64,000 nucleotides of DNA from positions 5,048 to 69,047 of the forward strand of contig JAJYXR010000007.1 of assembly GCA_021801795.1 (NCBI GenBank). The letters run 5' to 3'. The position numbers and the translations under genes were made by a program. This document shows, piece by piece, positions 1,722 through 52,425 of this stretch. Origin of the DNA: Actinomycetes bacterium (lineage in GTDB: Bacteria > Actinomycetota > Acidimicrobiia > Acidimicrobiales > JAJYXR01). The notes below the pieces were generated by a model, which searched no databases, had not been told where the DNA came from, and worked only from the letters and a program-made list of their open reading frames with translations. Every line of letters begins with the position of its first letter. The first letter of the stretch is position 1.

Positions 1722-1844
1722 GAAAGATCCTCCAGGTTTGGAACCAGACCGGGCTACCTGCCGAGCAACGCCACACAGCGGGCCAAGGCCACCAGGCAAT
1801 GAGGTGACCGCTCGGCCAAGTAGATCACGTTACCATGTCTGCTC

Positions 1845-3095: not shown

Positions 3096-3103
3096 GACCG
3101 GCC

Positions 3104-4231: not shown

Positions 4232-4243
4232 GAGCCTGAGGGC

Positions 4244-5083
4244 ATGACCCCGGACGCTGCATTGCCCCCCTATGGCGCCAGCATGCAGCGTCGTGCCAGG
4301 GCATCCAACGTCGCTGCTCTGCTCGCATCGGTGGTGGTGTGGCTGGCGCTACTCGGACCGCTCGGCGCGCTGCTGGTCCACATCTCCCCCACGGCCACAC
4401 GCGAGGCCCTCGGCGCACCGGGAGCACTCACCCCTCTGGTGACCTCGGTGGAGGCCAGCCTCGTCGCGCTGGCGGTGCTGGTAGTGGCGGGTACTCCCCT
4501 CGCGTGGATGATGGCCCGGGAACGCCTGCCGCTCCCGCGCCTGGTGGAGGCCGGCGTGCTCGTCCCGCTTCTCATGCCGCCCCTCGTGATCGGCCTCCTG
4601 CTCGTCTTCTTCCTCGGCCCCGCCACGCCACTTGGCGGCGCGCTCTCGCACCTCCACCTCTCGGCCTCGAACACCTTCTTCGCTCTCGTGGTCGCCGAGG
4701 TATACGAGGCGGCTCCCTACTATGTCCTGGGTGCCCAGAGCGCTTTTGCCTCGGTGGCCGTGGAGCTCGAGGAGAACGCCGCGCTGCTCGGCGATCCGTG
4801 GCGCCGTACACTCAGGCGCGTAACGCTGCCCCTGGCCGCTCCGGGACTGGCCACGGCACTCGCCACCGGATGGGCGCGGGCCATAGGAGCCTTCGGTGCG
4901 GTCATAGTCATCGCCTACCATCCCTACGGCTTGCCCATGCAGATCTGGGTGACCCTCCAGCAGAGCGGGCTGGCTGCGGCCCTGCCATTCGCCCTGCTGC
5001 TGGTCTTGGTCTCGCTTCCCCTGCCTCTCCTGGCCTTTTCCTGGAGCGCCAGGTCCAGGGTCGGGACGCGGGTGGCGACATGA
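4244..5083 (+). CDS. ABC transporter permease (ModB/WtpB/CysT-like)
   Basis: Polytopic hydrophobic protein with an EAA-loop-like LEENAALLGDPWRRTLRRVTLPLAAPGL. It lies between the SBP and ATPase genes. Confidence 0.85.
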   Translation: MTPDAALPPYGASMQRRARASNVAALLASVVVWLALLGPLGALLVHISPTATREALGAPGALTPLVTSVEASLVALAVLVVAGTPLAWMMARERLPLPRLVEAGVLVPLLMPPLVIGLLLVFFLGPATPLGGALSHLHLSASNTFFALVVAEVYEAAPYYVLGAQSAFASVAVELEENAALLGDPWRRTLRRVTLPLAAPGLATALATGWARAIGAFGAVIVIAYHPYGLPMQIWVTLQQSGLAAALPFALLLVLVSLPLPLLAFSWSARSRVGTRVAT

Positions 5084-5090
5084 GCACGCT

Positions 5091-6287
5091 GTGCGACCGC
5101 GGGGAGCCCCTCGGGTGACCTCTGGGCTGGACGTAGACGTCCGGGTGACGAGAAGGCACTTCGAGGTCTGCGCTCGCTTCGAGGTGCCCCCAGGGGAAAG
5201 GTTCGGCCTATTCGGGCCTTCGGGGGCGGGGAAGTCGACGGTGCTCTCTGCCATCGCCGGGCTCGTCGGGATCGACTCCGGCAGGATCGTGCTCGCGGGA
5301 AGGGTCCTCTCCGCCGCTCCCGCCGCCCGGACCACGGCGCGAGCGCGGCGGTCCCGGTCGGCTGGGGCAGGTGCCTTCAAGGTGCCGCTCCACATGCGAA
5401 GGGTCGGCCTGCTGCGCCAGAACGCGGGCCTCTTCCCGCATATGACCGTGGCGGCGAACATCGGTTACGGAACGGATCCCTCCACCGAGGACTCCGCGCA
5501 TGCAGTAGGGCACGCCGCGCGACTGGTGGGGGTGGAGAACCTTCTCGACGCTCACCCAGGGGCACTCTCCGGCGGCCAGCGCCAGCGCGTGGCACTCGCC
5601 CGGGTGCTCGCCAGCCGCTTCGAGGTACTGCTCCTGGACGAGCCCTTCAGCGGCCTCGACAGTGCCCTGCGCGTACGCCTCGCATCCCTCACCGCCGAGG
5701 AGGTATCCAGCCGGGCCGTACCCGCGGTGCTGGTGACACACGACCTGGCCGAGGCCCAGTCCTTCTGCTCGCAGGTGGGCGTGATGGACAGGGGGGAACT
5801 GCTGCAGGTGGGAGATCCCCTGGAGGTCGTCCTGCGTCCGGCCAGCGTGCCAGTGGCCCGGATGGTCGGCTACCGAGCATTCGTCCCGCTGGCGACGACC
5901 CTCCCCGTGACGTTCCCTGCAGCCCCCGCCAGATCGCTCCCGCTAGGCTCGCCAGCCGCCGGCAAGCCGTTCACCAGGCCTGGCCCCAGCGCCCATTGCC
6001 TCGTCGGGCTCCACCCCGACAGGATCACCATGGTGGACGAGGCCGATGCTTCGACGGCGGGCATCTCGGGCGGGCTCCAGATAGGGGCACGGGTCGCATC
6101 CTGCAGACCCGCGGGGGCGGGGTTCGAGGTCGATGTCGCCACTCCAGACGGCTCCACCGTGCCCTGCAGGCTGCCGACCGGCAGGCAGGTGCCCCAGAAC
6201 GGCGACCCATGCACGATACTGGTCGTCGATCCGCCACTCTTCGACGGCGACGGCCGTGCCCGCCCCAGCCAGGGGATGGAGAGCTGA
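5091..6287 (+). CDS. ABC transporter ATP-binding protein with a C-terminal TOBE-like domain (ModC/WtpC-like)
   Basis: Walker A GPSGAGKST, signature LSGGQRQRVALAR, Walker B LLLDEP. The C-terminal ~120 aa form a beta-rich TOBE-like extension. Confidence 0.85.
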   Translation: MRPRGAPRVTSGLDVDVRVTRRHFEVCARFEVPPGERFGLFGPSGAGKSTVLSAIAGLVGIDSGRIVLAGRVLSAAPAARTTARARRSRSAGAGAFKVPLHMRRVGLLRQNAGLFPHMTVAANIGYGTDPSTEDSAHAVGHAARLVGVENLLDAHPGALSGGQRQRVALARVLASRFEVLLLDEPFSGLDSALRVRLASLTAEEVSSRAVPAVLVTHDLAEAQSFCSQVGVMDRGELLQVGDPLEVVLRPASVPVARMVGYRAFVPLATTLPVTFPAAPARSLPLGSPAAGKPFTRPGPSAHCLVGLHPDRITMVDEADASTAGISGGLQIGARVASCRPAGAGFEVDVATPDGSTVPCRLPTGRQVPQNGDPCTILVVDPPLFDGDGRARPSQGMES

Positions 6288-6326
6288 TGGAGGCCTCGCA
6301 GGTAACAGGACTACCGGCTCGATAGC

Positions 6327-7631
6327 GTGGCTCTCGTGAAGGATCTGAACGACACCGGTGGAGGGACCGACCCCGGGCGAGCCGACGGGACGCCATCGCG
6401 TGCAAGCCGTCTCAGGCTCGCACGCCTGGCGCGTGGCCTGTCCCAAGACCAGCTCGCCGCCATGTCGGGCGTGACACGCCAGGCCGTAGCGGGCCTGGAA
6501 GCCGGTCGTTGGGATCCTTCGCTGAAGGTGGCGCTGAGGATGGCAGCCGCGCTCGCTACGTCGGTGGAGTCCCTATTCGCGTCTCCCGGTGCTGGCGCAG
6601 AGATAGAGGCTGTGCTGATATCTGGTGGCTCGGCACCGGGAGCGCCCCATGACGGCGAAACGGGCCATGCAGCGCCGGAGGGTTCGGAGACTGGCAGGGT
6701 GCTCCTCGCCCGGATCGGCCAGAGGATCAACGCATTTCCCCTCCTCGGAGATGCTGCCACCGCGGGGGGGTTTCGCCCAGCGCATGGCTACGTAGTCTCG
6801 GGTGCCTCCCACGGCGACTCGCGTCCCAGTGGCGAAGTGGCGCCCACTGGTCCGTACAGGACCGTGGCGGTGCGCGCCAGTGGATCGGGCTCGCTGGCCG
6901 ACCCAGCTCATGGGGGGACTCCCGCCGCCCGCGTGGTCGCCATAGCGGGCTGCGATCCAGCCATACCCCTCCTGGCGGGGCCCCTCGGGACACTCGACCC
7001 CCCGGTGGAGCTCCTCTGGTGGTCCTGCTCCAGTATCCGTGCCCTCGAGCTGCTGGCCGCCGGAGCGGTGCACGCAGCCGGGATGCATGTACGTTCGGAG
7101 CCATCCCATTCGTACAACACGCCACTGGCGCGCACTCTCTTCGCGAGCGAGGGTGCCGAGGTCATCGGCTTCGCCTCCTGGCGGGAGGGTCTCGTCATGA
7201 GGACTGACCTCGCTGGTGCGGTCGAGACGGTAGCCGACATCGCCCGGCTGGAGGTCCCTATCGCCAATAGGGAGCCCGGCTCCGAAGCCCGCGCGGTCCT
7301 CGAGCGCGAGTGTGCACGCCACGGTGTCGACCCCTCGACCCTGAGCGGGTACCGCTCCACCGTACAGGGACATCTGGAGGTGGCCTCTGCCCTACGGGCG
7401 GGCCTTGCCGGTGCGGGGGTAGCCAGCGAGCCAGCGGCCAGGGTCTACGGACTCTCCTTCGTGCCCATCACCACCGAGCGCTACGACATGGTCATCAGGG
7501 CACGACAGGTCCATCTGCCCGAGGTCCAGGCCCTCATACATGCTCTCGGGGATCCCGCCCTGAGTGAGCAGCTGGACGCCTTGCCCGGATATGACGCCTC
7601 TGCCTGCGGAACAGTCTTCGACATCTTCTGA
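6327..7631 (+). CDS. XRE-type HTH regulator fused to a periplasmic-binding-protein-like (oxyanion-sensing) domain
   Basis: N-terminal LARLARGLSQDQLAAMSGVTRQAVAGLEAGRWDPSLKVALRMAAAL is an HTH_3/XRE pattern. The C-terminal ~250 aa are PBP-like (..IAGCDPAIPLL.., ..TTERYDMVI..). This architecture commonly accompanies tup/mod loci. Confidence 0.7.
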   Translation: MALVKDLNDTGGGTDPGRADGTPSRASRLRLARLARGLSQDQLAAMSGVTRQAVAGLEAGRWDPSLKVALRMAAALATSVESLFASPGAGAEIEAVLISGGSAPGAPHDGETGHAAPEGSETGRVLLARIGQRINAFPLLGDAATAGGFRPAHGYVVSGASHGDSRPSGEVAPTGPYRTVAVRASGSGSLADPAHGGTPAARVVAIAGCDPAIPLLAGPLGTLDPPVELLWWSCSSIRALELLAAGAVHAAGMHVRSEPSHSYNTPLARTLFASEGAEVIGFASWREGLVMRTDLAGAVETVADIARLEVPIANREPGSEARAVLERECARHGVDPSTLSGYRSTVQGHLEVASALRAGLAGAGVASEPAARVYGLSFVPITTERYDMVIRARQVHLPEVQALIHALGDPALSEQLDALPGYDASACGTVFDIF

Positions 7632-9017: not shown

Positions 9018-12000
9018 CTACTGGTACCAGCCCATGACGTCTGCGATGACGTCGGTGGTGCCGGAGAAGTTATAGATGGTCACCGTGCCGGTGGAGCTGA
9101 GCGTGGCGATCACCAGGTTCGCCGTCGTGGCCCCCATCGTCCAGTTCAGGTCCGAAGCCGTCGGCGGAGTACCCGTACCTGGGTAAACCGTCAGGTAGCC
9201 ACCCGTGCTGGTGTTCGTAGCCGTCACGTTCAGCACGACCGCGGTGGCCGTCTTCGGCACGTTCGCCAGACCGGCGACAGTGACCGTGATGGTCTTGCCC
9301 GATCCCACGGTACCGATCGAGGCATTCGCAGTCGGGATGGCCTCACTGGAGCAGTAGCTCGGCGCGTGGCTGGCAGCGCACCTGGTGTCTAGGATGCGAA
9401 CCGGCGCGGGCTCGGCGTTGAACTGTGCGCCGGTGGCGCTCGAGCTGGCTGCGGTGAAGTAGCCGTCGACGTCCACCAGGGCGTCGGTGGTCACATCACT
9501 CACCAGGTTGATCGTCCCGCTGGAGCTCACCGGCACGATCACCCGGTTCGGCACCGCACCCTCGCCCATGTGGAAGTTCACGTTCGATACCAGGGGAGGC
9601 GTGGTGATGCTCCCCGGGTAGGCGGTGAGGTATCCACCACTGGAGTATCCGACTGCCGTCAGGTTCAGCACCACGGCGGTCACACCCGAGCTGGGTATCC
9701 CACCGTTACCGGTGACCTGCACGCTGAGCGGCGTGTTCGGTGCGAGCGTCTTGCCATTGCACTGAGCATCCGCACCGGTGAGGTTCGACGGGTTACCGGA
9801 CCTGGTGTCGCAGATGCGGGCCGGGGCCGAGAGGCCGTTGTAGAGGCCCTGGCCGGCAGCGCTCGGCACCGAGTAGTAGCCCTCGACGTCCACGATGATG
9901 TCCGTGGAGGTGTCAGCCGAGATGGCCACCTGGCCGTTCGTGCCCACACCCACCTCCACCAGGTTGGCGACGGCGTCGCCGGCCTTGAAGTTCAGGTTCG
10001 AGGTGCTGGGCTGGCTCGCACCGGCAGGGTACACCGTCACGAATCCACCGGTCGCCTCGTTCGCAGCCGTCACGTTCAGCACGACCGCCGAGACGCCCGA
10101 GGTGGGCACACCTCCGATACCGGCGACCGTCACGTCCAGCGGGCTGCTCGACGTGAGCTGGGTTCCGGAGTTGGCGCACTGGCCGGTCACCCCAGAGGTC
10201 ACGTCACCCGTGCCACCGATGCTCGCAGCGGAGCGCGTGTCGCAGATACGGGTGGGCGTGAGGGCCGTGTAGGCAGCCTCGTAGGTGAACTGGTCACCGC
10301 TCACGATACCGCTGGTGAGGCTGTTCACGGTAACCGTGACGTTCACCGTGCCGGTCATCTGAGCAGGCGAGACCACCGTGATCGAGGTGGAGGACACGAC
10401 GGTCACGCTGGTGCCGGCCACGGTGCCGAAGTCCACCGTCGCACCCGAGCTGAACCCGGATCCGGTGATGGTCACCGTGGTGCCACCAGCAGTCGACCCA
10501 ACAGTCGGGCTGATGCTGGTCACCACCGGAGCGGGCGGCGCAGACAGGGTGTAGGTACCGCTGGTAGCTGCTATCAGGTCTGCAGAGGTGCTCACCTGCA
10601 TGGTGTCAGTACCGGCCGGCGGGTTCGTCACGCTGGCTATCGACAGCGTCACGGCCGTCGAGTCTGCTATGGCCACAGGCGTGGTGATGGTCACGGTGGC
10701 GGTGCCACCTCCGGTCACCGTCGTCGCCGCGGCCCCGGCGCCACCACTAGGCGTCACCACGTAGTCCGATGCGGCCGACGGGAACGCTGTCCCCGTCGGA
10801 CCCGCCAGGACGATGGTGCCCGTGCCTGCCACCAGCGCACCGCTGGCACTGGTGGTGAAGTCCACCGTGTAGCTGGCAGACTCCGTGCCCACTGCAGGGC
10901 TCACCGTCACGCTCGGGCAGGCCGCGACGCCGGTCGCACAGGTCGTGGTGTCCGGACCAGTCACCGTCGAACCGATGGTGTAGCTGGAGGTGGCCACAGG
11001 AGCCGTGTCCGACGAGGTGTTCACGCTCAGCGTGTAGTTACCAGACGGCGGGTTCGTGACACCGCTGATGGTGAGCGCAACCGAACCACCCGCAGCCACG
11101 GACACCGGAATGTCCACGGTCGCCTCGTTATCGGTGCTCGAGCCGTTCGTGGCACTCAGCGATGGCGTCACGGTCGCAGCGGTGCTGTTGAACACGTAGT
11201 CGCTCGCCGTGGAAGGCATGGTCGTGCCAGGAGGAGCGTCGATGGTCACCGAACCCACAGGGGAGCTGGTCGTGCTCAGTGCACCGGTGGAGCTGGTCAC
11301 GAAGTCCAGCGTGTAGACAGCGTTGGTAGCTGCCTCCGTGGCTGGAGTCGGGCTCGGCCCGGTCAGCTTGCTGATCTCACTCCCAGTCGCGAAGGTCGGT
11401 GACGCCGCAGGAACGGTGTCGGCCGAGGTCGAGACCATGAGCTCGTTCGAGGTGCTCGCTGGCGGGTTCGTGGCACCGGAGATCACGACGATCACCGGAG
11501 CGCTGTCACCCACCGAGACCGGGATGGTGATCACCGCGCTGTTACTCGTAGCGCTCACCTTCGCAGCAGCCATGCCGTTCACGGTGTAGTCGCTGGCTGC
11601 ACTCGGCATGGTCATGCCAGCAGGCCCCGTGATGGTGATGGTGCCGGTGCCCGCCACGAGCGCACCAGTGGAGCTGGTGTCGAAGCTCACCGCGTACTCC
11701 GCGGGGCTACCGCCCGCCAGCGACGGGTTCGGGTTCGTCGTTATGTAGGGGAAGCTCGAACTCCCGGACGGGAGAGCCACGGATCCCACTGACGTCCCGA
11801 TCGAGTACTCGCTCGTCGTCACCGGGTCGGCGTCAGTCGACGTGAAGAGGCTCGCCGTGTAGGTCGTACCAGACGTCGGGTTAGTCGCTCCCGTGATAAC
11901 CAGCGAGGTGGGAGTGCTCGGCGAGATGTTCGTACCAACCGTCACCACCGCACAGTCACCGCTGGTGCAGGTAGGCGTCGGGGAGCTTATGAGGCTCACG

Positions 12001-14978
12001 CTATAGGCGGCGACACCACCGACTGTGTAGTCGGTGACCGCGCTGGGCAGGGTCGTGCCGCTCGGTACCACCACGGTAACCGTGCTCGTATCGCTTACCA
12101 GGTTGTAAGTGCTGCCCGATGCAGTCGCCGAGCTCGTGGTGAAGCTGAACGTGTACTTCGCGCTCTGCGAAGCGCTGGCGGGGTTTATCGACAGATCCAG
12201 GCTGCTCACCGCGGTCGGAGTGCTCACCGTATTGAAGGGCGTCACGGCCGCAGGCGCCGGGTCGGCCGAGGTGGAGACGCCAGCGGTGTAGTCACTCGTC
12301 GCGACGGCTGGGTTCGTCGTGTCGTTCACGTTCACGGTAACCGGTGCATCCGCGTTGATCGTCACCGGGGTGGTGATGATCGCGCATGGGGTCGAGCAGG
12401 TCGACGGGTCCACCGATACGGTCGAGGCCTCGACGCCGTTCACGACGTACAGGGCGGCAGTGCTCGGGAAGATCGTGGTCGCCGTGGACGTGATCGTGAT
12501 CGTGCCATTACCCGCAGTCAGCCCACCGGTGGAGCTGGTCGTGAAGGTGAAGTCGTACTGGCCAGGGGTGAAGCCCGCGTAGTCGTTCGGCTCCTGGCTC
12601 AGCTGATCGAAGCTCACCGACGTGGTCGGCGTGCCGATCACGTAGTAGCTGCTGTCGACCACGGCGGTGTCGTCTGTGCTCGTCACCACCGTCCCGACGT
12701 AGTTCCCGGCCGAGGGGTTCGTCGATCCGCCGATGACGACCGTCACCTGACCATTAGGCGTGACGTTGGCCGGAGAGGTGATGACCAGGTCATCGGTGCC
12801 AAGCCCCGAGAGGTCGCCCGAGGGCACCGGGATCCCGTTCACCGTGACAGTCGCGCCGCTCGATCCGAGAAGCGTGCCAGCAGTAGCCGTGATGGTGATG
12901 GTGCTGGAGCCACCCACGAGGTTGTACGTGGTGTTACCCGAGGCGAACTGGCTGCTCGTGGTGAACTGCACCGTGTAGGTGACACCCGCGGCATCGGCCA
13001 GGGAAGAGCTCGGGCTGAAGCTGACGCCCGAAACCTCGTTCGACGGTGCAGCCACGATCGGGTAGTAGCTGGTGGTCGCGGTGGCCTTGTCAGACGACGT
13101 GCTCACGCTGAGCTGGTCACCCGATCCTGTGCTCGCGGCTGGGTTCGTCACGTCGTTGATCGTTACCACCACGTCGGTGGAGTTCCCGATGGCCGCAGGC
13201 GTGACGATGGTGACTTCGTTCGACCCGCCGCCGGTGACCGCCGTGGCGATCGGGGCCGCCGTGGGCGTGCCGTAGAGCGAACCCTGGCTGATCGTGTAGT
13301 CACCGGTAGAGGTGGGGAACACCGTGCCGCTCGGCGCGTCGATGCTGATCGAGCCTGATCCGGCTGCCAGTGCTCCGGTCGAGCTGGTCTCGAAGGCCAC
13401 CTGGTATACGGTCGGGGCACCGGCGATATCCGATCTCATGGTCACCGTCTGGCTCGACACGGAAGAGTAGATGGTGTAGTTGCCGCTCGTGACCGGCATG
13501 AGGTCGGACGAGGTGAAGACCGTGACGGTGTCGTCCACGCTGGACGTGGTCGGGTTCGTCACGTTGCTCACGATGAGGTTCACAGCGGTGGAGGCCGCGA
13601 TGCTCTGTGAGATCGAGACTACGGCGGTCGAGGCAGTAGAGGTTCCACAGGTCACGCTGGTGCCCGCGGAGTTCTCACAGGCCACGGAGCTCGCTGTGGC
13701 CTGGCTCACGGAGTAGTCGCTTGCCGCTGCGGGGAAGACGGTACCGGCAGGTGCCTCCACCGTGATCGACCCGACTGGCGAACTCGAGCTGCTGAGCGCC
13801 CCAGAGGCGCTGGTGGTGAAGCCGATGCCGTAGGTGGCCGTGGTGACGCCAGTGCCGTTAGGCGTGGGGTTCCCAGCCGTGGCCGTGGTGACGCCGGAGC
13901 TGGTGGCCGTGGAGCAGCAGACCACCTTCGTGACTGCGGTCGGAGCGGCCGCGATGGTGTAGGTCTCACCGCTGCCGAAGGTCTCGGTCTTCGTGTCGGA
14001 GGAGGTGCTGATGGTGAGCGAGTCGGTGGACCCGCTGGCAGTGGCGGCGGGGTTCGTCACGCCGCTCACGACCACGTCCACGCTCCCGTCCGCCGGTATG
14101 GCCACGGGGGTGGTGATCGTCGCAGTATCCGTACCGCCACCGCTCACGGTCGATGCAGCGACGCCGTTCACCACGTAGTCACTGGCACTCGACGGGAAGA
14201 CGGTGCCCGTGGGCGCTGCCACGGTGATGGTGCCGCTGGCGGCTGCTAGGGCGCCGGTGGCCGGGGGGCTGGTGACCACAGCGCTGGTGGTGAAGGTGAA
14301 TGCGTAGGTAGCCGCAGACCCTGCGTAGTCCGGGCTCGGGTTGCCAGCAGCGGGCAGGCCGGTGCTGGCACTGATCGAGCAGCACACACCGAGGGTCACC
14401 TGCCCCGGAGGGGCGGTGAGGGTGTAGGAGGGTATGACTGCCGGGACCGTGTCGGCCGAGGTGGCCACGGTGGCGGTCGTGTAGGTGCCCGGGGTCGACG
14501 GGTTCGTCACGCCGTTCACCACGACGGTGACGGCGGTGCTGGCGGCGATGCTGGCGGGCACCGTGATGGTCACGGTGCTGGCGGTGCCGACCGTGCTGGA
14601 GTTACTGACCGTGGGACTGGCACTAACCACGGTGCCGTCCACGGTGTAGGCGTTCGCGCTGGATGGGAACACCGTCCCGGTCTGTGGAGACGCCGCCTGG
14701 GGACCGGGAAAGCTGAGGGTGATGGTGCCGGTTCCACCCGCGAGCGCGCCGGAGCTGCTCGTGGTGAAGCCGACGGTGTAGACCGATGTTGCGCTGGTGG
14801 TCGCAGGGTTGGCCGCGGGGCCGCTCACGCTCGTCACCGAGGTGCCGGTGGCGAAGGCCGTACCCGCGCCGAGGAAGGGCACGACGGCCAGTGCGGCTAC
14901 GAGCGCGGTGGCGCTGGCGCGCAGAGCACGCCGGATGCCTCTGGGTGTTATGGCCGTGCGAGTGGTCTCGCTGTTCAC
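9018..14978 (-). CDS. Giant secreted Thr/Ser/Val/Ala-rich repeat protein (~1986 aa): ~10 tandem ~145-aa units, one IPT/TIG domain, three C-terminal 'RICDTR' modules; candidate S-layer or surface glycoprotein
   Basis: The longest ORF reaches 15203, but GTG 14978 has SD GGGAGGA (14987-14993, 8-nt spacer) and opens directly into a signal peptide (..RRALRASATALVAALAVVPFLGAGTAFA). Ten units share ..Y.V.FTTSS.GAL..G.GTIT...P.GT.FPS...DY.V........VTNP... The IPT/TIG domain (ISPTVGSTAGGTTVTITGSGF) lies at ~10270-10545. The three RICDTR/RILDTR modules occupy 9018-10265. Confidence 0.85.
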   Translation of the reverse strand: MNSETTRTAITPRGIRRALRASATALVAALAVVPFLGAGTAFATGTSVTSVSGPAANPATTSATSVYTVGFTTSSSGALAGGTGTITLSFPGPQAASPQTGTVFPSSANAYTVDGTVVSASPTVSNSSTVGTASTVTITVPASIAASTAVTVVVNGVTNPSTPGTYTTATVATSADTVPAVIPSYTLTAPPGQVTLGVCCSISASTGLPAAGNPSPDYAGSAATYAFTFTTSAVVTSPPATGALAAASGTITVAAPTGTVFPSSASDYVVNGVAASTVSGGGTDTATITTPVAIPADGSVDVVVSGVTNPAATASGSTDSLTISTSSDTKTETFGSGETYTIAAAPTAVTKVVCCSTATSSGVTTATAGNPTPNGTGVTTATYGIGFTTSASGALSSSSSPVGSITVEAPAGTVFPAAASDYSVSQATASSVACENSAGTSVTCGTSTASTAVVSISQSIAASTAVNLIVSNVTNPTTSSVDDTVTVFTSSDLMPVTSGNYTIYSSVSSQTVTMRSDIAGAPTVYQVAFETSSTGALAAGSGSISIDAPSGTVFPTSTGDYTISQGSLYGTPTAAPIATAVTGGGSNEVTIVTPAAIGNSTDVVVTINDVTNPAASTGSGDQLSVSTSSDKATATTSYYPIVAAPSNEVSGVSFSPSSSLADAAGVTYTVQFTTSSQFASGNTTYNLVGGSSTITITATAGTLLGSSGATVTVNGIPVPSGDLSGLGTDDLVITSPANVTPNGQVTVVIGGSTNPSAGNYVGTVVTSTDDTAVVDSSYYVIGTPTTSVSFDQLSQEPNDYAGFTPGQYDFTFTTSSTGGLTAGNGTITITSTATTIFPSTAALYVVNGVEASTVSVDPSTCSTPCAIITTPVTINADAPVTVNVNDTTNPAVATSDYTAGVSTSADPAPAAVTPFNTVSTPTAVSSLDLSINPASASQSAKYTFSFTTSSATASGSTYNLVSDTSTVTVVVPSGTTLPSAVTDYTVGGVAAYSVSLISSPTPTCTSGDCAVVTVGTNISPSTPTSLVITGATNPTSGTTYTASLFTSTDADPVTTSEYSIGTSVGSVALPSGSSSFPYITTNPNPSLAGGSPAEYAVSFDTSSTGALVAGTGTITITGPAGMTMPSAASDYTVNGMAAAKVSATSNSAVITIPVSVGDSAPVIVVISGATNPPASTSNELMVSTSADTVPAASPTFATGSEISKLTGPSPTPATEAATNAVYTLDFVTSSTGALSTTSSPVGSVTIDAPPGTTMPSTASDYVFNSTAATVTPSLSATNGSSTDNEATVDIPVSVAAGGSVALTISGVTNPPSGNYTLSVNTSSDTAPVATSSYTIGSTVTGPDTTTCATGVAACPSVTVSPAVGTESASYTVDFTTSASGALVAGTGTIVLAGPTGTAFPSAASDYVVTPSGGAGAAATTVTGGGTATVTITTPVAIADSTAVTLSIASVTNPPAGTDTMQVSTSADLIAATSGTYTLSAPPAPVVTSISPTVGSTAGGTTVTITGSGFSSGATVDFGTVAGTSVTVVSSTSITVVSPAQMTGTVNVTVTVNSLTSGIVSGDQFTYEAAYTALTPTRICDTRSAASIGGTGDVTSGVTGQCANSGTQLTSSSPLDVTVAGIGGVPTSGVSAVVLNVTAANEATGGFVTVYPAGASQPSTSNLNFKAGDAVANLVEVGVGTNGQVAISADTSTDIIVDVEGYYSVPSAAGQGLYNGLSAPARICDTRSGNPSNLTGADAQCNGKTLAPNTPLSVQVTGNGGIPSSGVTAVVLNLTAVGYSSGGYLTAYPGSITTPPLVSNVNFHMGEGAVPNRVIVPVSSSGTINLVSDVTTDALVDVDGYFTAASSSATGAQFNAEPAPVRILDTRCAASHAPSYCSSEAIPTANASIGTVGSGKTITVTVAGLANVPKTATAVVLNVTATNTSTGGYLTVYPGTGTPPTASDLNWTMGATTANLVIATLSSTGTVTIYNFSGTTDVIADVMGWYQ

Positions 14979-15130
14979 GTGGAGTGTCCTCCCTGTGTCG
15001 TTGTTCGGATACGCCTGGCGGCCCGACCCTTCGTTTATTTCCTGAGACACCGCTCGAGCCTTTCTCTCTCCGCTTCCGGCGTGCATTGACGCCCCGATCA
15101 TTGCCTGTGCGATCCCCGGATGCACGTCAG

Positions 15131-15155
15131 CCGGCTGGGAGGTCTTCCCAGCCGG
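15131..15155 (-). promoter_or_regulatory. Perfect 10-bp stem-loop in the putative long 5' leader of the giant gene
   Basis: CCGGCTGGGA (15131-15140), loop GGTCT, TCCCAGCCGG (15146-15155). It lies ~150 nt upstream of the GTG at 14978. Its role is inferred only. Confidence 0.2.
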
Positions 15156-15394
15156 TCGGCTCGATCCGGTTCCTTCTTCATTTCTATTGCCTTCGAATCG
15201 CACGTCACAACCTCAATCGTCGTGGGATGCCGGACCGTTACGACCCTGCCCCGTCTAACGCCTGTACACGTCTGCCCGCGAAGTCGCGGGATCGGCGGAA
15301 CCTTACGCGTGCCAGCAGGTCGTGTCAAGCACCGTCGGTGAAACTGCCAGCGTGGTCGTAGCGCCAGAGGCACATCCGTGCGAGAATCCCACCG

Positions 15395-18293: not shown

Positions 18294-20762
18294 CTATCGA
18301 GGCCGGCGCGAATAGGCAGAGCGCGCCCTGGTGTGTCCAGCGATGACCCTGTCAAGGACATGGTTCCGCACCCAGCGGACAGGCGCGCTGACGCGCCAGG
18401 AGGTGCTGGCGTATACCTCGGCCAGTTCTTCACGCAGCGCGGCTTCCTGGTCATGCACCGCCCCGAGCGCCTTCTCGTACTCGTCCGCCTGGCGGCTGTG
18501 TTCGGCTTCGATCTGCTCGACCGTGACGCGATGGTGTTCTGTGAGGGCTGCGATCCCGGCACGAAGCTCGTCCGCCTCGGCTTCGAGAATGCGGTTGGCC
18601 AGCCAGGCTGCTTCCGGCGTGGAGGCGGGCACCTCCTGAAGCATGGCACGCAGCCGGTCGGTGCTGCCCTGCCCGCATCCCTGAGCGGCCTCGAGGAACG
18701 ACTCGACCACTGCCTCGAGGCACAGGCGCTCGGCATCAAGCGTCGTAACGACGGGCTGACCCTCGGAGCCTCCGAGGACCGGGTCCAGGCCGGGACCGGC
18801 CGCCGGATCGTCCATGCCAGGACCCCCAGTTCGCGCGCGCACGCTCGGGGAATGGCTGGCGATCACCCAGGCAGAGCTGCCCTCCCCCGGCACCGTGTAC
18901 GGATCCAGGCCGAGCTGTCGCAGTATCCCCGCTGGGCCCGCTCCGGTCGTTGCCGTCCGACTCGTAGCCGTCGTGGTCGTCCCGGACGGCTGGTCGAGGC
19001 GGCAGTCGGCCACACTCCCTCCTGTGGCCACGCCGATCACGCCGGCGGGGCTGAGCCGCCTCACCCACTCAGTGAGCCAGCCGGCATCACTGCCCCGAGA
19101 CGACGACCCGAGCCAGATGAAGTCCAGCGACCCAGGCTCGAAGCGCTCGAACGGATAGCGACCTGCATCAGGGACCATCTCCACACGCTCGTGGAACGTC
19201 GCGACGCGCGCCGCGAGCTCAGCCATGTCGAGGCGATGCTCCGGCGAGTCCGCGCCGTCGTCCAGCACGACCAGCCTGCGACATCCCCAGTGGGCGAGGA
19301 TGTGAGACACGAGGCGCCCGCGCCCGGCATTCACTATCACCCCGGTCCCGTCGAGGCCCCGTGCTTCGAGGAAGTAGGGCAGCTCCTCGGGGAATGGGAG
19401 CCGGGAGGCAGGGTCCCCATAGTTCCACCTGTACCAGGGTGCAGAGAGCGGCGCGTCGGGACGCAGAGCGATAGAGCGCGTCCAGCCCCGCTCTGGCAGC
19501 GGCAGGTCCACATAGCACCCAGCAGCGCGCCTGAGCTGCACACCGGCACGAGCCAGCGAAACAACAACCGATACGCCGTCTCCATCGAGGCCGTCGCTCG
19601 CACGGAGCGCGCCGAGCGCGTCAGCGCGCTTCATGCCCACGGCGGGTAGGTCGCGCTCTGCGCCGTACAGCGAGCACGAGCCTGGCTGGAGCAGGGTTCC
19701 GTCAGCCTCCGCGCCCAGTATCTCGTCACTCCAGTAGGCCCTTGCAGCGGATGCGCCCGCGTCGAGTGCCGCGCACAGGGCGTCCAGCCAGCCGGGCCGG
19801 GGTCGCACTGCGCCGGCCAACAGGGCCACGAGCTCGTTACGAGCGCTCTCGCAGCCGACCTCCCAGGCGTCGGTGAGGCCGTAGCCGCCCGGCACGCGCC
19901 TGACGGTGGCCCCCTGTAGCGAGGCGAAGAGTCCTCCGAGTCCCGAGGCAGCGTCCACGATCACGACCTCGTCGCCGTCGGCCAGTCCGGAGTCCCCGAG
20001 CGCCGCTAGCGACGCAGCCCAGCGCTCGAAGCGTCCCGGCAGTACCGGAAGGATCACCGAGATGCCGGGGCGAAAGCTCGCCGGGTCCTCTAGAAGAGCG
20101 CCGGAGCTGGCCCGGCCCAGTGCGAAGCGCTCCGCGTAGCCCGCTATGAGCGGGGCCCTCTCCAGCAGTTCTGCCCTGGTGAAGTGCACGATGCGAGGGT
20201 TTGGGTGCGGATCGAACGCCATCGAGCACCACTCGGTGCCGAGCATCCCCACCCGGCTGGTCCATCGGGTGTCGCCGGTGAAGGCTACCTGGTCGGGCAG
20301 GCTGATGTCATAGCCGATGAGCCTCATGATCGCGGCCTGCTCCCACCAGGGATGCTCTACCAGGTCCTCGCATCCCCAGACCTCGTCGAGGAACTCCGCT
20401 GCCTCCCCACCCGCATGGAGAGCGAGCACCGCTGCACATGGCTGGCGCCCGCCGCGATAGGCATGCTCCACCATCCACAGGAAGCGCTCGGGAGTGGCCA
20501 CGTCAGCGATGTCGGCGGTGGTGTCGGCGAAGGTGGCGTCGGCATCCACCCATAGCACGAAGTCGTAGCGCTCGGTGAGGTCGCGCATGAGCAGAACCTT
20601 GCTCCACGAAACAGGTCTCTCGTGGCAGAGCGAGCGGGTCTCCAAGACGAGATCGTAGCCGTGACGGGACGCGTAATCCTCGAAGGCAGGTCCGGACAGG
20701 TCGAGGAAGCGCCGGTGCGAGCCCACTGCCAGGGAACAGAGGACCTTCCTCAGGGGAGACAT
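18294..20762 (-). CDS. Multidomain glycan-modifying enzyme: DxD nucleotide-sugar transferase + GT2-like + class-I methyltransferase-like + coiled coil with an SWRxSxPxR tail
   Basis: ATG 20762 (GAGGA 10 nt upstream) is preferred over the 20834 start. FVLWVDADATF is a DxD GT-A motif. ISVILPVLPG...DEVVIVDAASG is GT2-like. RRLVVLDDGADSPE...LDFIWLGSS is MTase-like. The C-terminal heptad-rich region ends in ASTSWRVSAPVRWV. Confidence 0.7.
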   Translation of the reverse strand: MSPLRKVLCSLAVGSHRRFLDLSGPAFEDYASRHGYDLVLETRSLCHERPVSWSKVLLMRDLTERYDFVLWVDADATFADTTADIADVATPERFLWMVEHAYRGGRQPCAAVLALHAGGEAAEFLDEVWGCEDLVEHPWWEQAAIMRLIGYDISLPDQVAFTGDTRWTSRVGMLGTEWCSMAFDPHPNPRIVHFTRAELLERAPLIAGYAERFALGRASSGALLEDPASFRPGISVILPVLPGRFERWAASLAALGDSGLADGDEVVIVDAASGLGGLFASLQGATVRRVPGGYGLTDAWEVGCESARNELVALLAGAVRPRPGWLDALCAALDAGASAARAYWSDEILGAEADGTLLQPGSCSLYGAERDLPAVGMKRADALGALRASDGLDGDGVSVVVSLARAGVQLRRAAGCYVDLPLPERGWTRSIALRPDAPLSAPWYRWNYGDPASRLPFPEELPYFLEARGLDGTGVIVNAGRGRLVSHILAHWGCRRLVVLDDGADSPEHRLDMAELAARVATFHERVEMVPDAGRYPFERFEPGSLDFIWLGSSSRGSDAGWLTEWVRRLSPAGVIGVATGGSVADCRLDQPSGTTTTATSRTATTGAGPAGILRQLGLDPYTVPGEGSSAWVIASHSPSVRARTGGPGMDDPAAGPGLDPVLGGSEGQPVVTTLDAERLCLEAVVESFLEAAQGCGQGSTDRLRAMLQEVPASTPEAAWLANRILEAEADELRAGIAALTEHHRVTVEQIEAEHSRQADEYEKALGAVHDQEAALREELAEVYASTSWRVSAPVRWVRNHVLDRVIAGHTRARSAYSRRPR

Positions 20763-20993
20763 GCCGGTCTCGTCCTCGGCGCGAGCCCTCCTGACCTCGA
20801 TGCGGACGGGGCAGCGCAGCCGCATCCCAGCCAACGGGTGCTCCCCGCTACAGGACGCGATCCACGTTCGGGTGGCCGCTCGCTCATCGCGTCAGTCTCT
20901 CCCAGGGAGACTGCTGCTGCCAGCGAGCGTCCAGCGCGCCATCCACCTCCGGGGCCTAGTCTTTGGCATCAGAACCAGACGAGCCGAGCGCAC

Positions 20994-22172
20994 ATGAGCA
21001 ATCCTGAGCAGCCTACGCACACCACCACGCCTGATCCTCGGGACCGCGTGCCAGTGGGCATGGCCGTGCCATCCCTCCGGATCGCCTATGTCACGGTCCC
21101 CAAGGCTGCCTGCACCAGCATGCTATGGGGGCTCGTTGGCCTGGCTGACGACCGCCCTGGCGTGAGGCAGGGAAGCAGCGACATCCCGGAGGTGACCCCG
21201 GAGCTCACTATCCACGACTGGCGGACCTGGCCGGAGAGCCTCACCACCCTCGATCGGCTGCCGGACTCCGTGCTGGCAGAAGGCACCGACGCTGCCGGCA
21301 TGAGCTGGCTCGTGTTCTCCGCCGTGCGAGAGCCACTTGCCCGGCTCTTCTCGGCATGGCAGTCGAAGATCCTCTGCCAAGAACCGCTCTACGTCGCACG
21401 ATACGGCGGCCAGCCCTGGTTCCCGCCACCGCCGCGAAGCACAGGCGAGGTAGCCGAAGGCTTCGCGGCATTCGTTGAAGCCCTCGGCGCTGACCGGTCG
21501 CTGGCAGTCGATGACTGGCACTGGATAAGCCAGGTTCGCCTGCTCGCCATCGACCGGGTCCGCTACGGATGCATCGCTGGCATCGACCGGGCCGAGCCTG
21601 GAACCGCCCATACCAGTGGCCTCGAGATCCAGCCTCTGGATTCCCTGGTCGCTCAGGTGAACGCCCATGTGCATGACCAGGGCAGCAGCGCAGTGTTGGA
21701 CCTCGCCAGGCGCAACGCGACCCTCCTGCCACTCTCTGCCGAGACGGTGAGCGCGAAGACCGCTCAGCTCGTGGCCGACATGTACGAGGAGGACTACCTC
21801 GCTCTTGGCTACGAGCCACCGTCGCTCGAGTCCGCGAAAGGGTTGTCCTGGGAACCGCTTCTCCGGGCAGTCCGCATGCTGGTAGATCGTCACGAGCGCA
21901 TAGCCGACCTCGCCCGGATCGCCCGCGAGCGGCTGTCCAAGATCGAGAGCCTCGAGTCGGCCAACTACCACGCTCGCCAGGAGTCTGCGGCCCTCCAGGC
22001 CCAGGTCGAGCACCTCGAGGACGAACGCACGCGGCTCGGCGAACGCTCCAGAAGCATCGAGGACGCGCTCGAAAGCCTCGTGAGGGACAGGGAGCACCTG
22101 GAGAGGATCCTCCACAGCCGGACCTGGCGCTGGAGCGAGCCGTTACGACGGATCTACGCGCGCACCAGATGA
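20994..22172 (+). CDS. Carbohydrate sulfotransferase-like protein (Sulfotransfer_2/CHST-like) with a C-terminal coiled coil and SWRxSxPxR-type tail
   Basis: The internal ATG 20994 avoids overlap with the divergent gene; the track ORF starts at 20622. IAYVTVPKAACTSMLW and FSAVREPLARLFSAWQSK fit the PAPS-binding motifs of family-2 sulfotransferases. The last ~90 aa are heptad-rich and end in HSRTWRWSEPLRRIY. Confidence 0.65.
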   Translation: MSNPEQPTHTTTPDPRDRVPVGMAVPSLRIAYVTVPKAACTSMLWGLVGLADDRPGVRQGSSDIPEVTPELTIHDWRTWPESLTTLDRLPDSVLAEGTDAAGMSWLVFSAVREPLARLFSAWQSKILCQEPLYVARYGGQPWFPPPPRSTGEVAEGFAAFVEALGADRSLAVDDWHWISQVRLLAIDRVRYGCIAGIDRAEPGTAHTSGLEIQPLDSLVAQVNAHVHDQGSSAVLDLARRNATLLPLSAETVSAKTAQLVADMYEEDYLALGYEPPSLESAKGLSWEPLLRAVRMLVDRHERIADLARIARERLSKIESLESANYHARQESAALQAQVEHLEDERTRLGERSRSIEDALESLVRDREHLERILHSRTWRWSEPLRRIYARTR

Positions 22173-34978: not shown

Positions 34979-35062
34979 TCAGGAGTAGTAGCGGTAGACC
35001 ACCTCGGCCACGCAGCAGGGTTTCTCGGCTCCATCGGACTCGATGGTCAGTGCGGCGGTCAT
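34979..35062 (-). pseudogene. 27-codon remnant of a MaoC-like dehydratase 3' end
   Basis: MTAALTIESDGAEKPCCVAEVVYRYYS* compared with ..LGLTIEAEGSEKPCCVAEVVYRYYA* at the end of the 30668 gene, with ~85% nucleotide identity over ~70 nt. Its ATG overlaps the stop of the 35059-37413 gene (ATGA). Confidence 0.6.
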
Positions 35063-37413
35063 CCGGCGGCCTTCAGGTCCTTCCGGACGGTAGCCAGGTA
35101 CTTCCTGAACCCCGGGTCGCGCGGATCCCAGTGCACGGCTGCCTCGGTCTCGCTCAGTGCCTGGCTCAGGTACGACCTCTGCTTCGCCGGGTAGAGGTGC
35201 GAGAGGCCCACGAGCACCTGGGCGAGCTCGTAACGGTACTGGCTGGCCTCGGGCTCGGCCCTCACGGCTGCCACCAGGTAGGTGTCTGCCTGGGAGAGGT
35301 CGGTCTGCTGTGTGCTGGCGGTGGTGGACTTGCTCGCCGCGACCGCCAGATCGACGCCCGCGGCGGCAGGGTAACGCGCTGCCCAGGGGTTCAGCACCAT
35401 GGCATGGTTCAGATCCGCGAAGTACTCGCTACCGAGATGGCTCACGGCCGAGGAGGAGGCACCGGACTTCTCCGCGTGGACATAGGCGGCCTGTATCTTC
35501 TCTGCCTGCCAGTAGTCGTGCCCTGCACGCCAGGGACCGTCGGCGCCGTAGGCGACCAGCCCACCCACCACGATGCAGGCCAGGCCGGTCAGCAGGGTGG
35601 GCCATCCCCGCCCGTCCCACCAGCCGGTGCGCCCAGGCGCAGCTCTGGTGGCCTTCGCACCTCCAGCCCCGGGGGCGCCTGGGGGCTCAGGGGTGCTGGA
35701 ACCCGAGACACCGGAGCGCACCAGCAGATCCAGGGCCCCCGCGCTCACCACGGCCAGGAGCCCGAGCAGGAGCCACCAGGACATCGAGAGGGCTATCTGC
35801 TGGATGTTGAAGACGGCCTGCACCACGTAGGCCACGAGCCCGGCTGCCACCGCCCCGAGCACCACCCGCCTGGTGGTGGCCTCTGCCGACTCGGCCACCC
35901 CGGCGCGCTCCACGCGCCGGAGCCTCATAAGGGCTCTGAGCGAGATCACCCCCGCGGCCACCACCAGTGCCACCAGTAGGGCCAGCCCGACGAAGCCGCG
36001 GTCGGCCAGGGTGTTCATGAAGATGTCGTGCGCTCCGTCTGCTGCGTATACGAAACCCAGGTACTTCGCCCAGCTGGCGCTCTCGTAGCGGGGGAAGACG
36101 TACACGAAGGTGTCCGAGCCGGTCCCTGTGAGCGGGTGGTGGGCCGCGATATGGAGTGCCGCGGTCCACATGTCGAAACGCTGTGCGACGCTGCTGGAGG
36201 GCCCGGAGCGAAAGAGGCTCGATATCTTCCCACCGACGTAGTGGGCCCCACCCAGGGCGAAGATGACCGTGGCTGCTCCTGCTGCTGCCAGAACGCCGGC
36301 AACCGGCAGCGCGGGCCGGCGGCGGATCTCCGGCCACATGACGATGGCGAGCACCACCCCAGACGCGATCACGGCCACCCAGGCACCCCGGGCCGCGCTC
36401 TGGAGCAGCTCTGCCAGCAGCGCTACCACCAGGACGCCTACGCCGAGCTGGACGAGCCGGTTCCTCGACCGCAGCCCCAGCAGCACGCAGGTGGGCAGCA
36501 CGATGGAGATGTACCCCGCGAGGTGGTTCGGGTTACCGAGGGTGGAGAAGACGTTATGGAAGGGGAGGCCCTTTATCCAGTGGACGAAGTCCCAGTGGTG
36601 GCCGTGGAGCACCAGGTCGTGGAGCTGGACCAGCCCGTACCAGGCCGCCACGCTGCCTGCGCCGAACGCGAGCGTTCCGAGCACCGCGGGCACGTCGGAG
36701 GCATCGAATGCCTCTGCAGCGGAGAAGGTGAGGGTGACGAATGCCAGCGCCGAGTAGAAGCCGTCGTAGGAGCCATGCGCCCCGAGCATGCTCAGGTGCA
36801 CGTTCACGCTGGTGAGGGAGCTCACGAGCACCCAGAGCAGGTAGGCGCCGAGCAGCCAGTGCAGGCCGTTGCGCCACCTCGGCAGGGCTCCGCTCGAGAC
36901 CGTGCCGGTGATCCACAGACCAGCCAGGACCAGGGATCCGACCACCAGCACGGTGTACTTCGGCAGGTCGAACACGTCGGTGGTGTGGGGATCGAAGACC
37001 ACTGGCACCACCAGGGCCATCGCCATCACGGTGAGGGCCCTGGCCGCCCTGAAGGGCTCCTTGCCCCGCGCCACCGAGGCCGCGGCCACCCCAGTCCCCA
37101 CGAGGGCCCCTAGGAGCACCATGAGGAACACGGTGAAGGTCCAGGAGGTGATGATGCCGCCGGCCCATGCGAGGACGAGCACCAGCCAGGCCGCCCCCAG
37201 CCAGGCCGCCACGGGAACAGGCACGCCGGCGGGCACCAGCCGCTCGAAGCGCTCCATCCAGGGGGCCAGTGGGCGTCCTGTCTCGTCGGCCACCCGATGC
37301 CCGGTGTGCCGGTTACGGTTCGCTCCCCGCGGGGCCTGGCGTGTGGCCTGCCGCTGTGCCTGGGTCACCTGGGCTTCCCGAAGTGCCCTCTTGCGCGCTC
37401 CCTCTCTCGGCAC
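35059..37413 (-). CDS. O-antigen ligase/polymerase-like (Wzy_C) polytopic membrane protein with a C-terminal soluble helical-repeat domain
   Basis: At least 10 TM helices. GAHDIFMNTLADRGFVGLALL resembles the Wzy_C/O-antigen ligase loop motif. The C-terminal ~200 aa are soluble and TPR-like. Confidence 0.7.
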   Translation of the reverse strand: MPREGARKRALREAQVTQAQRQATRQAPRGANRNRHTGHRVADETGRPLAPWMERFERLVPAGVPVPVAAWLGAAWLVLVLAWAGGIITSWTFTVFLMVLLGALVGTGVAAASVARGKEPFRAARALTVMAMALVVPVVFDPHTTDVFDLPKYTVLVVGSLVLAGLWITGTVSSGALPRWRNGLHWLLGAYLLWVLVSSLTSVNVHLSMLGAHGSYDGFYSALAFVTLTFSAAEAFDASDVPAVLGTLAFGAGSVAAWYGLVQLHDLVLHGHHWDFVHWIKGLPFHNVFSTLGNPNHLAGYISIVLPTCVLLGLRSRNRLVQLGVGVLVVALLAELLQSAARGAWVAVIASGVVLAIVMWPEIRRRPALPVAGVLAAAGAATVIFALGGAHYVGGKISSLFRSGPSSSVAQRFDMWTAALHIAAHHPLTGTGSDTFVYVFPRYESASWAKYLGFVYAADGAHDIFMNTLADRGFVGLALLVALVVAAGVISLRALMRLRRVERAGVAESAEATTRRVVLGAVAAGLVAYVVQAVFNIQQIALSMSWWLLLGLLAVVSAGALDLLVRSGVSGSSTPEPPGAPGAGGAKATRAAPGRTGWWDGRGWPTLLTGLACIVVGGLVAYGADGPWRAGHDYWQAEKIQAAYVHAEKSGASSSAVSHLGSEYFADLNHAMVLNPWAARYPAAAGVDLAVAASKSTTASTQQTDLSQADTYLVAAVRAEPEASQYRYELAQVLVGLSHLYPAKQRSYLSQALSETEAAVHWDPRDPGFRKYLATVRKDLKAAG

Positions 37414-37507
37414 GAGACGCGAGGCTAGCCGCTCGGCGCCGGGGCCGAGCGGACACAGGCTTGGTGCCCCCGAGACGATCCGGGAACGTCCGCCGGGCGG
37501 AGAAAGC

Positions 37508-38170: not shown

Positions 38171-38363
38171 TTCCGCACCATCTGGCGCAGCCTAGTGCAG
38201 TGTCTCAGTTTTACGCGGTGACTCGATCGAGGGCGATCCGGTCGCGCATTCCTGCCATCTGGGCCCAGGGGTTGGCTCGATGAGCCGGGCCAAGGCTGCC
38301 GAGCGCCGGACTCATAGGCGCTGATGTGGGAACCCGGCTGAAGATCGCCGATGCCAGAGGATC

Positions 38364-48718: not shown

Positions 48719-48732
48719 ATTCCAGGCTGCTC

Positions 48733-49044: not shown

Positions 49045-49098
49045 GGTGTCTCCTCCTCCCGGCCCACCATCGAGGGGCCGCCTGTCTGACCAGTACAT

Positions 49099-52364: not shown

Positions 52365-52425
52365 AGAGCCTACGGTGAATGTCCCCAGTTCGCGCGGATG
52401 CTCCCAACAGGCGGTACCGCCCGCC

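Follow-up and report, generated by a model that had tools for sequence, protein, structure and literature searches.

This analysis concerns a 64,000-nucleotide stretch (the window) of the genome of an Actinomycetes bacterium of the order Acidimicrobiales (assembly GCA_021801795.1, contig JAJYXR010000007.1, positions 5,048 to 69,047 of the forward strand), and two divergent genes within it, which encode protein A (18294-20762, minus strand) and protein B (20994-22172, plus strand). On balance, we favor the view that A and B carry one widespread module, composed of a coiled-coil stalk, a conserved junction motif and a short cationic amphipathic helix, which would act as a membrane-proximal stalk and foot. 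An initial annotation, made from the sequence alone, had described A as a protein with two glycosyltransferase domains and a methyltransferase domain and B as sulfotransferase-like, and had proposed that their coiled-coil tails form a matched pair that caps a glycan and sets its length, by analogy with the O-antigen terminator WbdD.

When all 64 kb were translated in six frames, the pattern [ST]WR.[ST].P.R appeared at exactly two places, once in A (nt 18375-18401, minus strand; ..YASTSWRVSAPVRWVRN..) and once in B (nt 22122-22148, plus strand; ..HSRTWRWSEPLRRIYARTR), compared with a rough chance expectation of about 0.02 in 128,000 translated positions. A crude heptad score exceeded the 98th percentile of shuffled sequences only in the two tails, at residues 724-790 of 822 in A and 291-365 of 392 in B, and AlphaFold2 (AF2) modeled both regions as helices, so that the first description of both enzymes as ending in a helical tail with the motif stands. 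The motif had also been placed at the C-terminal end; 7 residues separate it from the stop codon in B and 26 in A, where it is thus near the C-terminus but not at the very end. The divergent arrangement of the two genes around the intergenic region at 20763-20993 was confirmed, and no transmembrane segment was found in either protein.

Protein B comprises 392 residues when read from the ATG at 20994, and a 372-residue form starting from the GTG at 21054 is also on record. Its assignment as a sulfotransferase is secure: the catalytic domain (21072-21812, plus strand) matched PF03567 (Sulfotransfer_2) at E=7.9e-11, scoring 43 bits against a curated cut-off of 22, and retained the motifs PKAACTS (5'-PSB, PKxxxT) and RxPxxRxxS (3'-PB, RxxxxRxxS), which bind 3′-phosphoadenosine 5′-phosphosulfate (PAPS), together with the conserved histidine. 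Residues K17, T21, R92, R97, S100 and H156 were invariant in a 32-sequence alignment of homologs. The AF2 model was of high confidence, with a predicted local distance difference test (pLDDT) score of 89, and a Foldseek comparison of this model with the PDB returned nothing significant, although the top matches were sulfotransferases. An insertion of about 15 residues in the catalytic domain (IDRAEPGTAHTSGLE; nt ~21630-21675, plus strand) was absent from all 31 aligned homologs, and the model confidence falls at this site. Beyond the catalytic domain, AF2 predicted a single unbroken 88-residue helix (21849-22112, plus strand; residues 266-353 in the numbering of the 372-residue form) with pLDDT values of 88-97, which would span about 13 nm if straight, as estimated from the model, and which gave weak Pfam matches to the coiled-coil families XRCC4_CC, Leu_zip and Tropomyosin. 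The stalk helix breaks off at H354-S355; beyond it come the short helix RTWRW, a second break at S361 and a last helix. The junction motif, S-R-T-W-R-W-S-E-P-L-R, lies at 22116-22148 and the basic tail, RIYARTR, at 22149-22169 (both plus strand); the protein ends in ..LERILHSRTWRWSEPLRRIYARTR, and motif and tail together have a net charge of +5 and a hydrophobic moment of 0.54. In about 15 of the 60 homologs of B, a coiled coil likewise leads into S-x-S-W-R-[YLV]-T-[AR]-P-L-R, with basic residues at the end, and the others either stop earlier or have an unrelated C-terminal domain.

Protein A was read as 822 residues from MSPLRK (nt 20762), a start chosen from the alignment with six homologs; in the public annotation (P0061), the start is placed 21 codons farther upstream, for a length of 843 residues. 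Its parts are arranged in the order GT-A domain, GT2-like domain, methyltransferase-like domain, linker, stalk, motif and basic tail, and the domain assignment of the initial annotation was borne out in part. The N-terminal GT-A domain (20109-20762, minus strand) is GT34-like (PF05637, E=8.5e-6), with a WVDADA (DxD) motif whose D73 and D75 are invariant in the homolog alignment; a Bradyrhizobium protein consists of a GT34-like domain and the tail, and nothing else. The central GT2-like domain (19503-20075, minus strand) is weak and atypical, with a PF00535 score below the cut-off (16.5 bits, E=0.008), and also matched TIGR03965 (MftF-like) at E=1.7e-8. The Methyltransf_24-like domain (residues ~458-580; 19023-19391, minus strand) was recognized through the distant homologs P0064-P0067, for which PF13578 is recorded; A itself gave no Pfam match to this family at E<=1. 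In the alignment, DFVYLDARHD of the homologs reads DFIWLGSSSRGSD in A, with VEVG and LDARHD of P0064-P0067 replaced by VIVN and LGSSSR. These motifs are lost in A and in its 62% identical ortholog and kept in the 39% identical ortholog and in the tail-less homologs. Judged by these substitutions, the methyltransferase-like domain of A is probably degenerate and looks inactive.

The helical stalk of A (residues ~716-785; 18408-18617, minus strand) was delimited by the heptad score and by the AF2 model, in which a helix extends over residues 716-813 with pLDDT values of about 50-78, a weak model because the alignment contained only 7 sequences. It is followed by the junction motif S-T-S-W-R-V-S-A-P-V-R (residues 786-796; 18375-18407, minus strand) and the basic tail WVRNHVLDRVIAGHTRARSAYSRRPR (18297-18374, minus strand), the protein ending in ..EELAEVYASTSWRVSAPVRWVRNHVLDRVIAGHTRARSAYSRRPR; motif and tail together have a net charge of +8. 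The tail is present in three of the seven homologs of A, the closest ones (identical, P0061; 62%, P0062; 39%, P0063), which share STSWR[VL][ST]AP[VIL]RW, and the motif is thus conserved in the orthologs (STSWRVSAPIR in P0062, STSWRLTAPLR in P0063) as it is in the tailed homologs of B. The four distant homologs (P0064-P0067) stop directly after the methyltransferase domain. Stalk length varies among the homologs of both proteins, the stalk of P0062 being about 29 residues shorter than that of A. As the module is kept in a tailed subset of both enzyme families and is absent from their other members, it behaves as a modular add-on.

The same module is found far beyond the two proteins. A 40-column profile of 15 tails, with A and B among the seeds, was searched against 1.84 billion representative proteins and matched 6,419 protein clusters at E<=1e-3, with 36 at E<=1e-10. 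Among the 147 best matches, the consensus was SxSWR[ILV]TAPLR, the last copy lay within 30 residues of the C-terminus in 108, and 65 contained at least two copies, most commonly spaced 44-46 residues apart; many profile matches had 2-4 tandem copies. Positions were compared over 200 copies, numbered from the Trp. The search pattern prescribed W, P and R at +7, but neither Ser at -3 (99%) nor Ser at -1 (96%); Thr occupied +3 in 84%. Leu or Ile recur at -20, -16, -13, -9 and -6, indicating a heptad-patterned helix upstream of the motif. Downstream of the Trp, hydrophobic residues recur at +2, +6, +9 and +13 and Arg or Lys at +11 and from +14 to +17, the mean charge being +4.3 over the 18 residues from the Trp compared with -0.7 over the preceding 22. 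The helical hydrophobic moment of these 18 residues was 0.48, compared with 0.32 after shuffling. A and B both have the upstream heptad helix, the core residues and the cationic segment after the motif.

Among 69 long matches, the carrier domains included GT2 (25 proteins) and GT1/GT4 (10), with many class I or FkbM methyltransferases and, further, RgpF, WbsX, WsaF (one protein) and glycerophosphotransferase domains. In some carriers, the copies are N-terminal or central, with glycosyltransferase domains after them, and some proteins (P0084, P0086, P0082) have three tandem units of stalk and motif: P0084 has three such units and no recognizable catalytic domain, and in P0086 three N-terminal units precede WbsX, GT4 and GT2 domains. 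Because polymerizing glycosyltransferases also carry the module, and because it can be arrayed in tandem or placed N-terminally or centrally, it is not specific to chain terminators. Searches of reference collections returned little: seven short or tandem carriers gave only weak, non-significant Pfam or NCBIfam matches at E<=10, mostly to coiled-coil or unrelated families; the profile matched only designed coiled coils among PDB sequences, and no PDB chain covers the motif; a protein search by word index, made with the 40-residue profile of the tails, gave 7 short fragments and nothing more; and a full-text literature search for the motif strings found nothing relevant. Glycan assembly enzymes that have a coiled-coil stalk with a membrane-proximal end are already known. 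The searchable family libraries, structures and papers contain neither the junction motif nor its broad distribution, its occurrence in WbdD (described below) or its fusion to sulfotransferases.

The genomic context of the tails was surveyed with the 15-sequence tail alignment and the exact peptide STSWR[VLI]TAPL in contigs of one genome per species. At least 600 stretches containing this peptide were found in species-representative genomes, compared with about 1 expected by our own estimate; 358 were confirmed and 80 loci were kept, to which the locus counts below refer. With these numbers and with glycan enzymes as carriers, the statement in the initial annotation that an SWRxTxPLR-like tail recurs in polysaccharide enzymes proved accurate. 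The hosts include Alpha-, Beta- and Gammaproteobacteria (Pseudomonadota), several actinobacterial orders, Acidobacteriota, Treponema (Spirochaetota), Phycisphaeraceae (Planctomycetota) and Melainabacteria. Among 1,107 clustered neighboring proteins, the most recurrent families were nucleoside diphosphate (NDP)-sugar epimerases/dehydratases (23/80 loci), Wzt-type ATPases of ATP-binding cassette (ABC) transporters (23/80) and ABC-2 permeases of the Wzm type (15/80), followed by GT2, RmlA and RmlC; the module is thus associated with glycan loci. Wzm/Wzt exporters lay within 10 kb in 23 of the 80 loci, and the module is enriched next to them. Two or more tailed proteins were encoded in 13 of the 80 loci, as they are in the window and at the P0062 locus (L084); examples are a GT2+GT4 protein with a GT4 protein next to Wzt, a GT2+Methyltransf_24 protein with a Methyltransf_23 protein, and a Methyltransf_23 protein with a Methyltransf_24 protein. 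Plasmid annotations label the carriers as glycosyltransferases, GH99-like proteins, class I or FkbM methyltransferases, or sulfotransferases. On two Rhodobacterales plasmids, the loci of tailed sulfotransferases also encode an ABC permease, an ABC ATPase and a ‘sugar transporter’. The catalytic domains of these sulfotransferases are unrelated to that of B, and the tail has therefore been joined independently to two sulfotransferase families.

WbdD is the chain terminator and molecular ruler of the ABC-transporter-dependent O-antigens of E. coli O9/O9a and K. pneumoniae O3/O5. Its trimeric coiled coil is the ruler, and its C-terminal region contains an amphipathic membrane-locating helix and the recruitment site for the polymerase WbdA (PMC3447403, PMC5082667, PMC11231755). 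In the O9 antigen cluster of E. coli HS, the gene (L087 7967-10093, corresponding to NC_009800 2147966-2150092, minus strand; RefSeq ‘class I SAM-dependent methyltransferase’, SAM being S-adenosylmethionine) encodes 708 residues. A module-like heptad segment is followed by S592-x-S-W-R-M-T-x-x-x-R602 (residues 592-602, SRSWRMTKGYR; upstream ..NENQQLRQEIEKIHR (..EIEKIHR), downstream YLGLQIHLLRQYGFVQRCKHFIKRVLRFVFSFMRKH.. / YLGLQIHLLRQYGF..). In a two-sequence search, the tail profile matched residues 574-599 of WbdD, a short and diverged segment, with 27.7 bits and E=1.4e-10, and gave no match to WbdA. A WbdD variant with 89% nucleotide identity retains the motif. By sequence comparison, the WbdD motif is a diverged copy of the module junction, at the membrane-proximal end of the ruler coiled coil and immediately ahead of the membrane-binding region. 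The solved WbdD constructs end at residue 556, and the motif has therefore never been seen in a structure.

The WbdD analogy therefore draws on sequence similarity in addition to architecture. B resembles WbdD in having an end-modifying head, a long coiled-coil stretch and, at the C-terminus, a membrane-proximal region, in that order, and both proteins lack transmembrane segments. As its head, B has a sulfotransferase of the PAPS type, in contrast to the methyltransferase-kinase of WbdD; the stalk of B has 88 residues compared with about 140; and B has no adjoining Wzm/Wzt or WbdA-like mannosyltransferase polymerase. The analogy thus holds for the profile match and for the order of parts in B, and does not extend to the exporter, as no Wzm/Wzt is encoded near the cluster within the 64-kb window. 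An end-modifying head set off by a coiled coil, as expected of a terminator, is seen in B and only partly in A, with its apparently degenerate methyltransferase-like domain.

From these features, we infer the following mechanism. The stalk would oligomerize and, docked at the membrane or at an assembly complex through the foot, would hold the soluble catalytic head at a distance set by the stalk length. On glycosyltransferase-bearing proteins such as A, the module would serve as a tether into the assembly site, whereas on end-modifying enzymes such as B it would create a WbdD-like geometry, in which B may sulfate only those chains that reach the head about 13 nm from the membrane, perhaps thereby terminating them. 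A sulfotransferase head held in this geometry makes B a candidate for a sulfating end-modifier or terminator.

Several observations weigh against this stalk-and-foot interpretation. In the WbdD copy, K-G-Y stands in place of A-P-L, and only 7 residues follow the motif in B compared with ~106 in WbdD, whose membrane-binding region covers ~100. WbdD truncated at residue 600, just past the motif core, was expressed as a soluble protein (PMC3447403), so that the motif alone probably does not bind the membrane; together with the 7-residue tail of B, this argues that the motif by itself is not a sufficient membrane anchor. Within the 64-kb window, no Wzt-type ATPase or Wzm permease was found near the cluster, which has a Wzy_C protein instead, and 57 of the 80 loci had no Wzm/Wzt within 10 kb. 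A simple C-terminal foot leaves the tandem arrays of P0084, P0086 and P0082 unexplained. The AF2 models are monomers and silent on oligomers and membranes, that of A being of low confidence besides. Finally, the conservation of the polar residues S, S, T and R, read from the alignments, is stricter than a generic membrane-binding helix needs, which points to a specific contact.

This last observation is the starting point of the alternative that survives best, although we consider it doubtful, namely that the junction motif, rather than being a lipid-facing foot, is a peptide that docks onto a dedicated protein partner (a polymerase, an exporter or a scaffold), to which every motif-bearing enzyme of a pathway would be recruited. 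The near-invariant Ser at -3 and -1 and the frequent Thr at +3 resemble a specific recognition surface, the membrane-proximal region of WbdD recruits WbdA (PMC11231755, PMC3447403), and the recurrence of two or more tailed enzymes per locus fits a shared partner. Yet no candidate partner family emerged among the 1,107 neighboring proteins beyond Wzt/Wzm, which are present in 23 of the 80 loci and not near the window cluster, and WbdA itself lacks the motif. A bolder form of specific recognition, which we hold to be unlikely, is that SxSWRxTxPLR is a universal ‘address’ at the stalk base binding a specific ligand of the assembly site, and B the first sulfating chain terminator and ruler. If so, the ligand could, for example, be the undecaprenyl-linked acceptor, through its diphosphate, or else the assembly or export machinery, through a conserved surface, and all junction-bearing enzymes of a pathway would be measured from the same origin.

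The initial proposal in its strict form, in which A and B would be a specific matched pair that hetero-oligomerizes via the coiled coils and jointly caps a glycan and sets its length, now appears improbable. The genes are adjacent and divergent and both products are tailed, both have the minority Ser at +3, and the stalks are similar in length, about 70-98 residues in A and 88 in B. In a BLASTP comparison of the two tails, however, 20 residues around the motif aligned (45% identity, E=0.002) and nothing more, and on this alignment the coiled coils of A and B are not homologous. Nor is the pair conserved. The locus of P0063 keeps the synteny of a GT4/GT2/GT4/GT4/GT4 series, with the ortholog of A directly after it and no sulfotransferase gene between, and the neighbor of P0062 is a different tailed protein, a 680-residue GT1-like protein ending in ..IEGSTSWKLTAPARIITDLGR... 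Tail identity at variable positions was 0.29 within loci (18 pairs) compared with 0.33 between loci (p about 0.95); tails that share a locus resemble one another no more than unrelated tails do, and the tails are therefore generic rather than matched. The apparent inactivity of the methyltransferase-like domain of A also speaks against joint capping. At the P0062 locus (L084 2876-10056), a PIN-domain gene, an IS200-like Y1 transposase gene and a TnpB/Cas12f-like gene come after the glycan genes, which suggests that this locus was rearranged by mobile elements.

It is also quite unlikely that homo-oligomerization is the sole function of the module, which would then be a coiled coil closed by a conserved helix cap and would take no part in membrane or complex targeting or in length control. 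In favor of this view, the AF2 model of B places S-x-[ST]-W-R and [ST]-x-P at helix breaks in the manner of capping boxes, the positions +2, +6, +9 and +13, which are hydrophobic, prolong the heptad pattern with a one-residue shift, and a WbdD fragment became monomeric once its C-terminal helix was removed (PMC3482155). Such a role would leave unexplained the near-exclusive tie of the module to membrane-linked glycan assembly enzymes, the cationic amphipathic tail and the placement of the motif at the WbdD ruler's membrane-proximal end. Chance similarity or low complexity, or a C-terminal sorting or secretion signal of the LPXTG or PEP-CTERM kind, was rejected as having a negligible probability: the motif is short, lies near the C-terminus and precedes basic residues, features shared with some sorting signals, but thousands of significant profile matches and the hundreds of exact peptide stretches speak against chance, and internal and tandem copies, the lack of a hydrophobic transmembrane stretch after the motif and carriers that use cytoplasmic donors (nucleotide sugars, SAM, PAPS) speak against sorting.

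Coiled-coil rulers and scaffolds are an accepted means of setting length in ABC-transporter-dependent glycan pathways and, to our knowledge, have so far been recognized only through generic coiled-coil prediction. A conserved junction signature would provide a specific annotation marker for such proteins and would tell which end of the stalk faces the membrane, and the junction would be a small mutable target for probing the anchoring and assembly of the complexes. Sulfation would be a possible, so far undescribed, chain-end modification delivered by a coiled-coil architecture; a literature search combining sulfotransferase, coiled coil and chain termination found no such enzyme described.

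The C-terminal membrane-targeting sequences of MinD and FtsA are, like the tails, short cationic amphipathic helices ending soluble proteins, and in both cases the binding strength is expected to depend on oligomerization. Unlike the tails, they are poorly conserved and are not known to have an invariant S-x-S-W-R..T.P.R core, to follow a long coiled coil or to form tandem arrays. WbbB (O12), ORF6 (O7) and ORF7 (O4) of K. pneumoniae are multi-module coiled-coil proteins of ABC-dependent O-antigen assembly (PMC11231755). A resembles them in combining several glycosyltransferase or modifying modules with a coiled coil in one polypeptide, but their terminator lies at the coil end distal from the polymerizing modules, whereas all catalytic-like domains of A are N-terminal to the stalk.

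The S-layer glycan pathway of Geobacillus stearothermophilus employs WsaE, a methyltransferase/rhamnosyltransferase, WsaF, and WsaB, a Wzy_C oligosaccharyltransferase. The window encodes a similar set, with a very large surface protein rich in Ser and Thr, an initiator resembling WecA, many glycosyltransferases, a Wzy_C protein and a rhamnosyl O-methyltransferase of the CmcI type, and the WsaF domain is also present on one tail carrier. The Geobacillus pathway uses Wzm/Wzt, and none was seen near the window cluster.

The glycan-biosynthesis cluster itself occupies the center of the window, whose guanine-cytosine content is ~68%, and encodes a WecA-like initiator, many glycosyltransferases, an 828-residue Wzy_C protein and a CmcI-type rhamnosyl O-methyltransferase. 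The Wzy_C (O-antigen ligase-like) protein (35059-38191, minus strand) has at least 11 transmembrane segments, and the start of its gene is overlapped by the CmcI-type methyltransferase gene; the two could account for transfer and end-methylation in this pathway. A hydropathy scan of the unannotated open reading frames of the window found no flippase or exporter apart from the Wzy_C protein. The sole ABC-2 pair of the window (53815-55568) is DrrA-like and lies ~32 kb from the cluster, beside the heme A/O synthesis genes ctaA/ctaB. A WtpA/ModB-like molybdate/tungstate ABC importer (3098-6287) is followed by a helix-turn-helix regulator with a periplasmic-binding-protein-like domain (3098-7631 together, plus strand); we considered this importer as a sulfate transporter feeding the sulfotransferases and ruled it out, since it is molybdate/tungstate-like and unrelated to glycan export. 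A second sulfotransferase (Sulfotransfer_3/Sulfotransfer_1; 51495-52454, minus strand), 30 kb from B, is unrelated to it and has no tail. Adjoining the glycan cluster, a 2061-residue Ser/Thr/Ala-rich protein (9018-15203, minus strand) contains many similar units of ~100 residues, a TIG domain and a DUF2808 match, and may be a glycosylation target, such as an S-layer-like or surface glycoprotein; a second TIG protein (1-1829, minus strand) runs off the window start. Genes for a TraG/VirD4-like coupling protein, an EccE-like protein and a 635-residue membrane protein are grouped at 42589-49159 (minus strand) and may belong to an element of conjugative or type VII-like character next to the glycan region.

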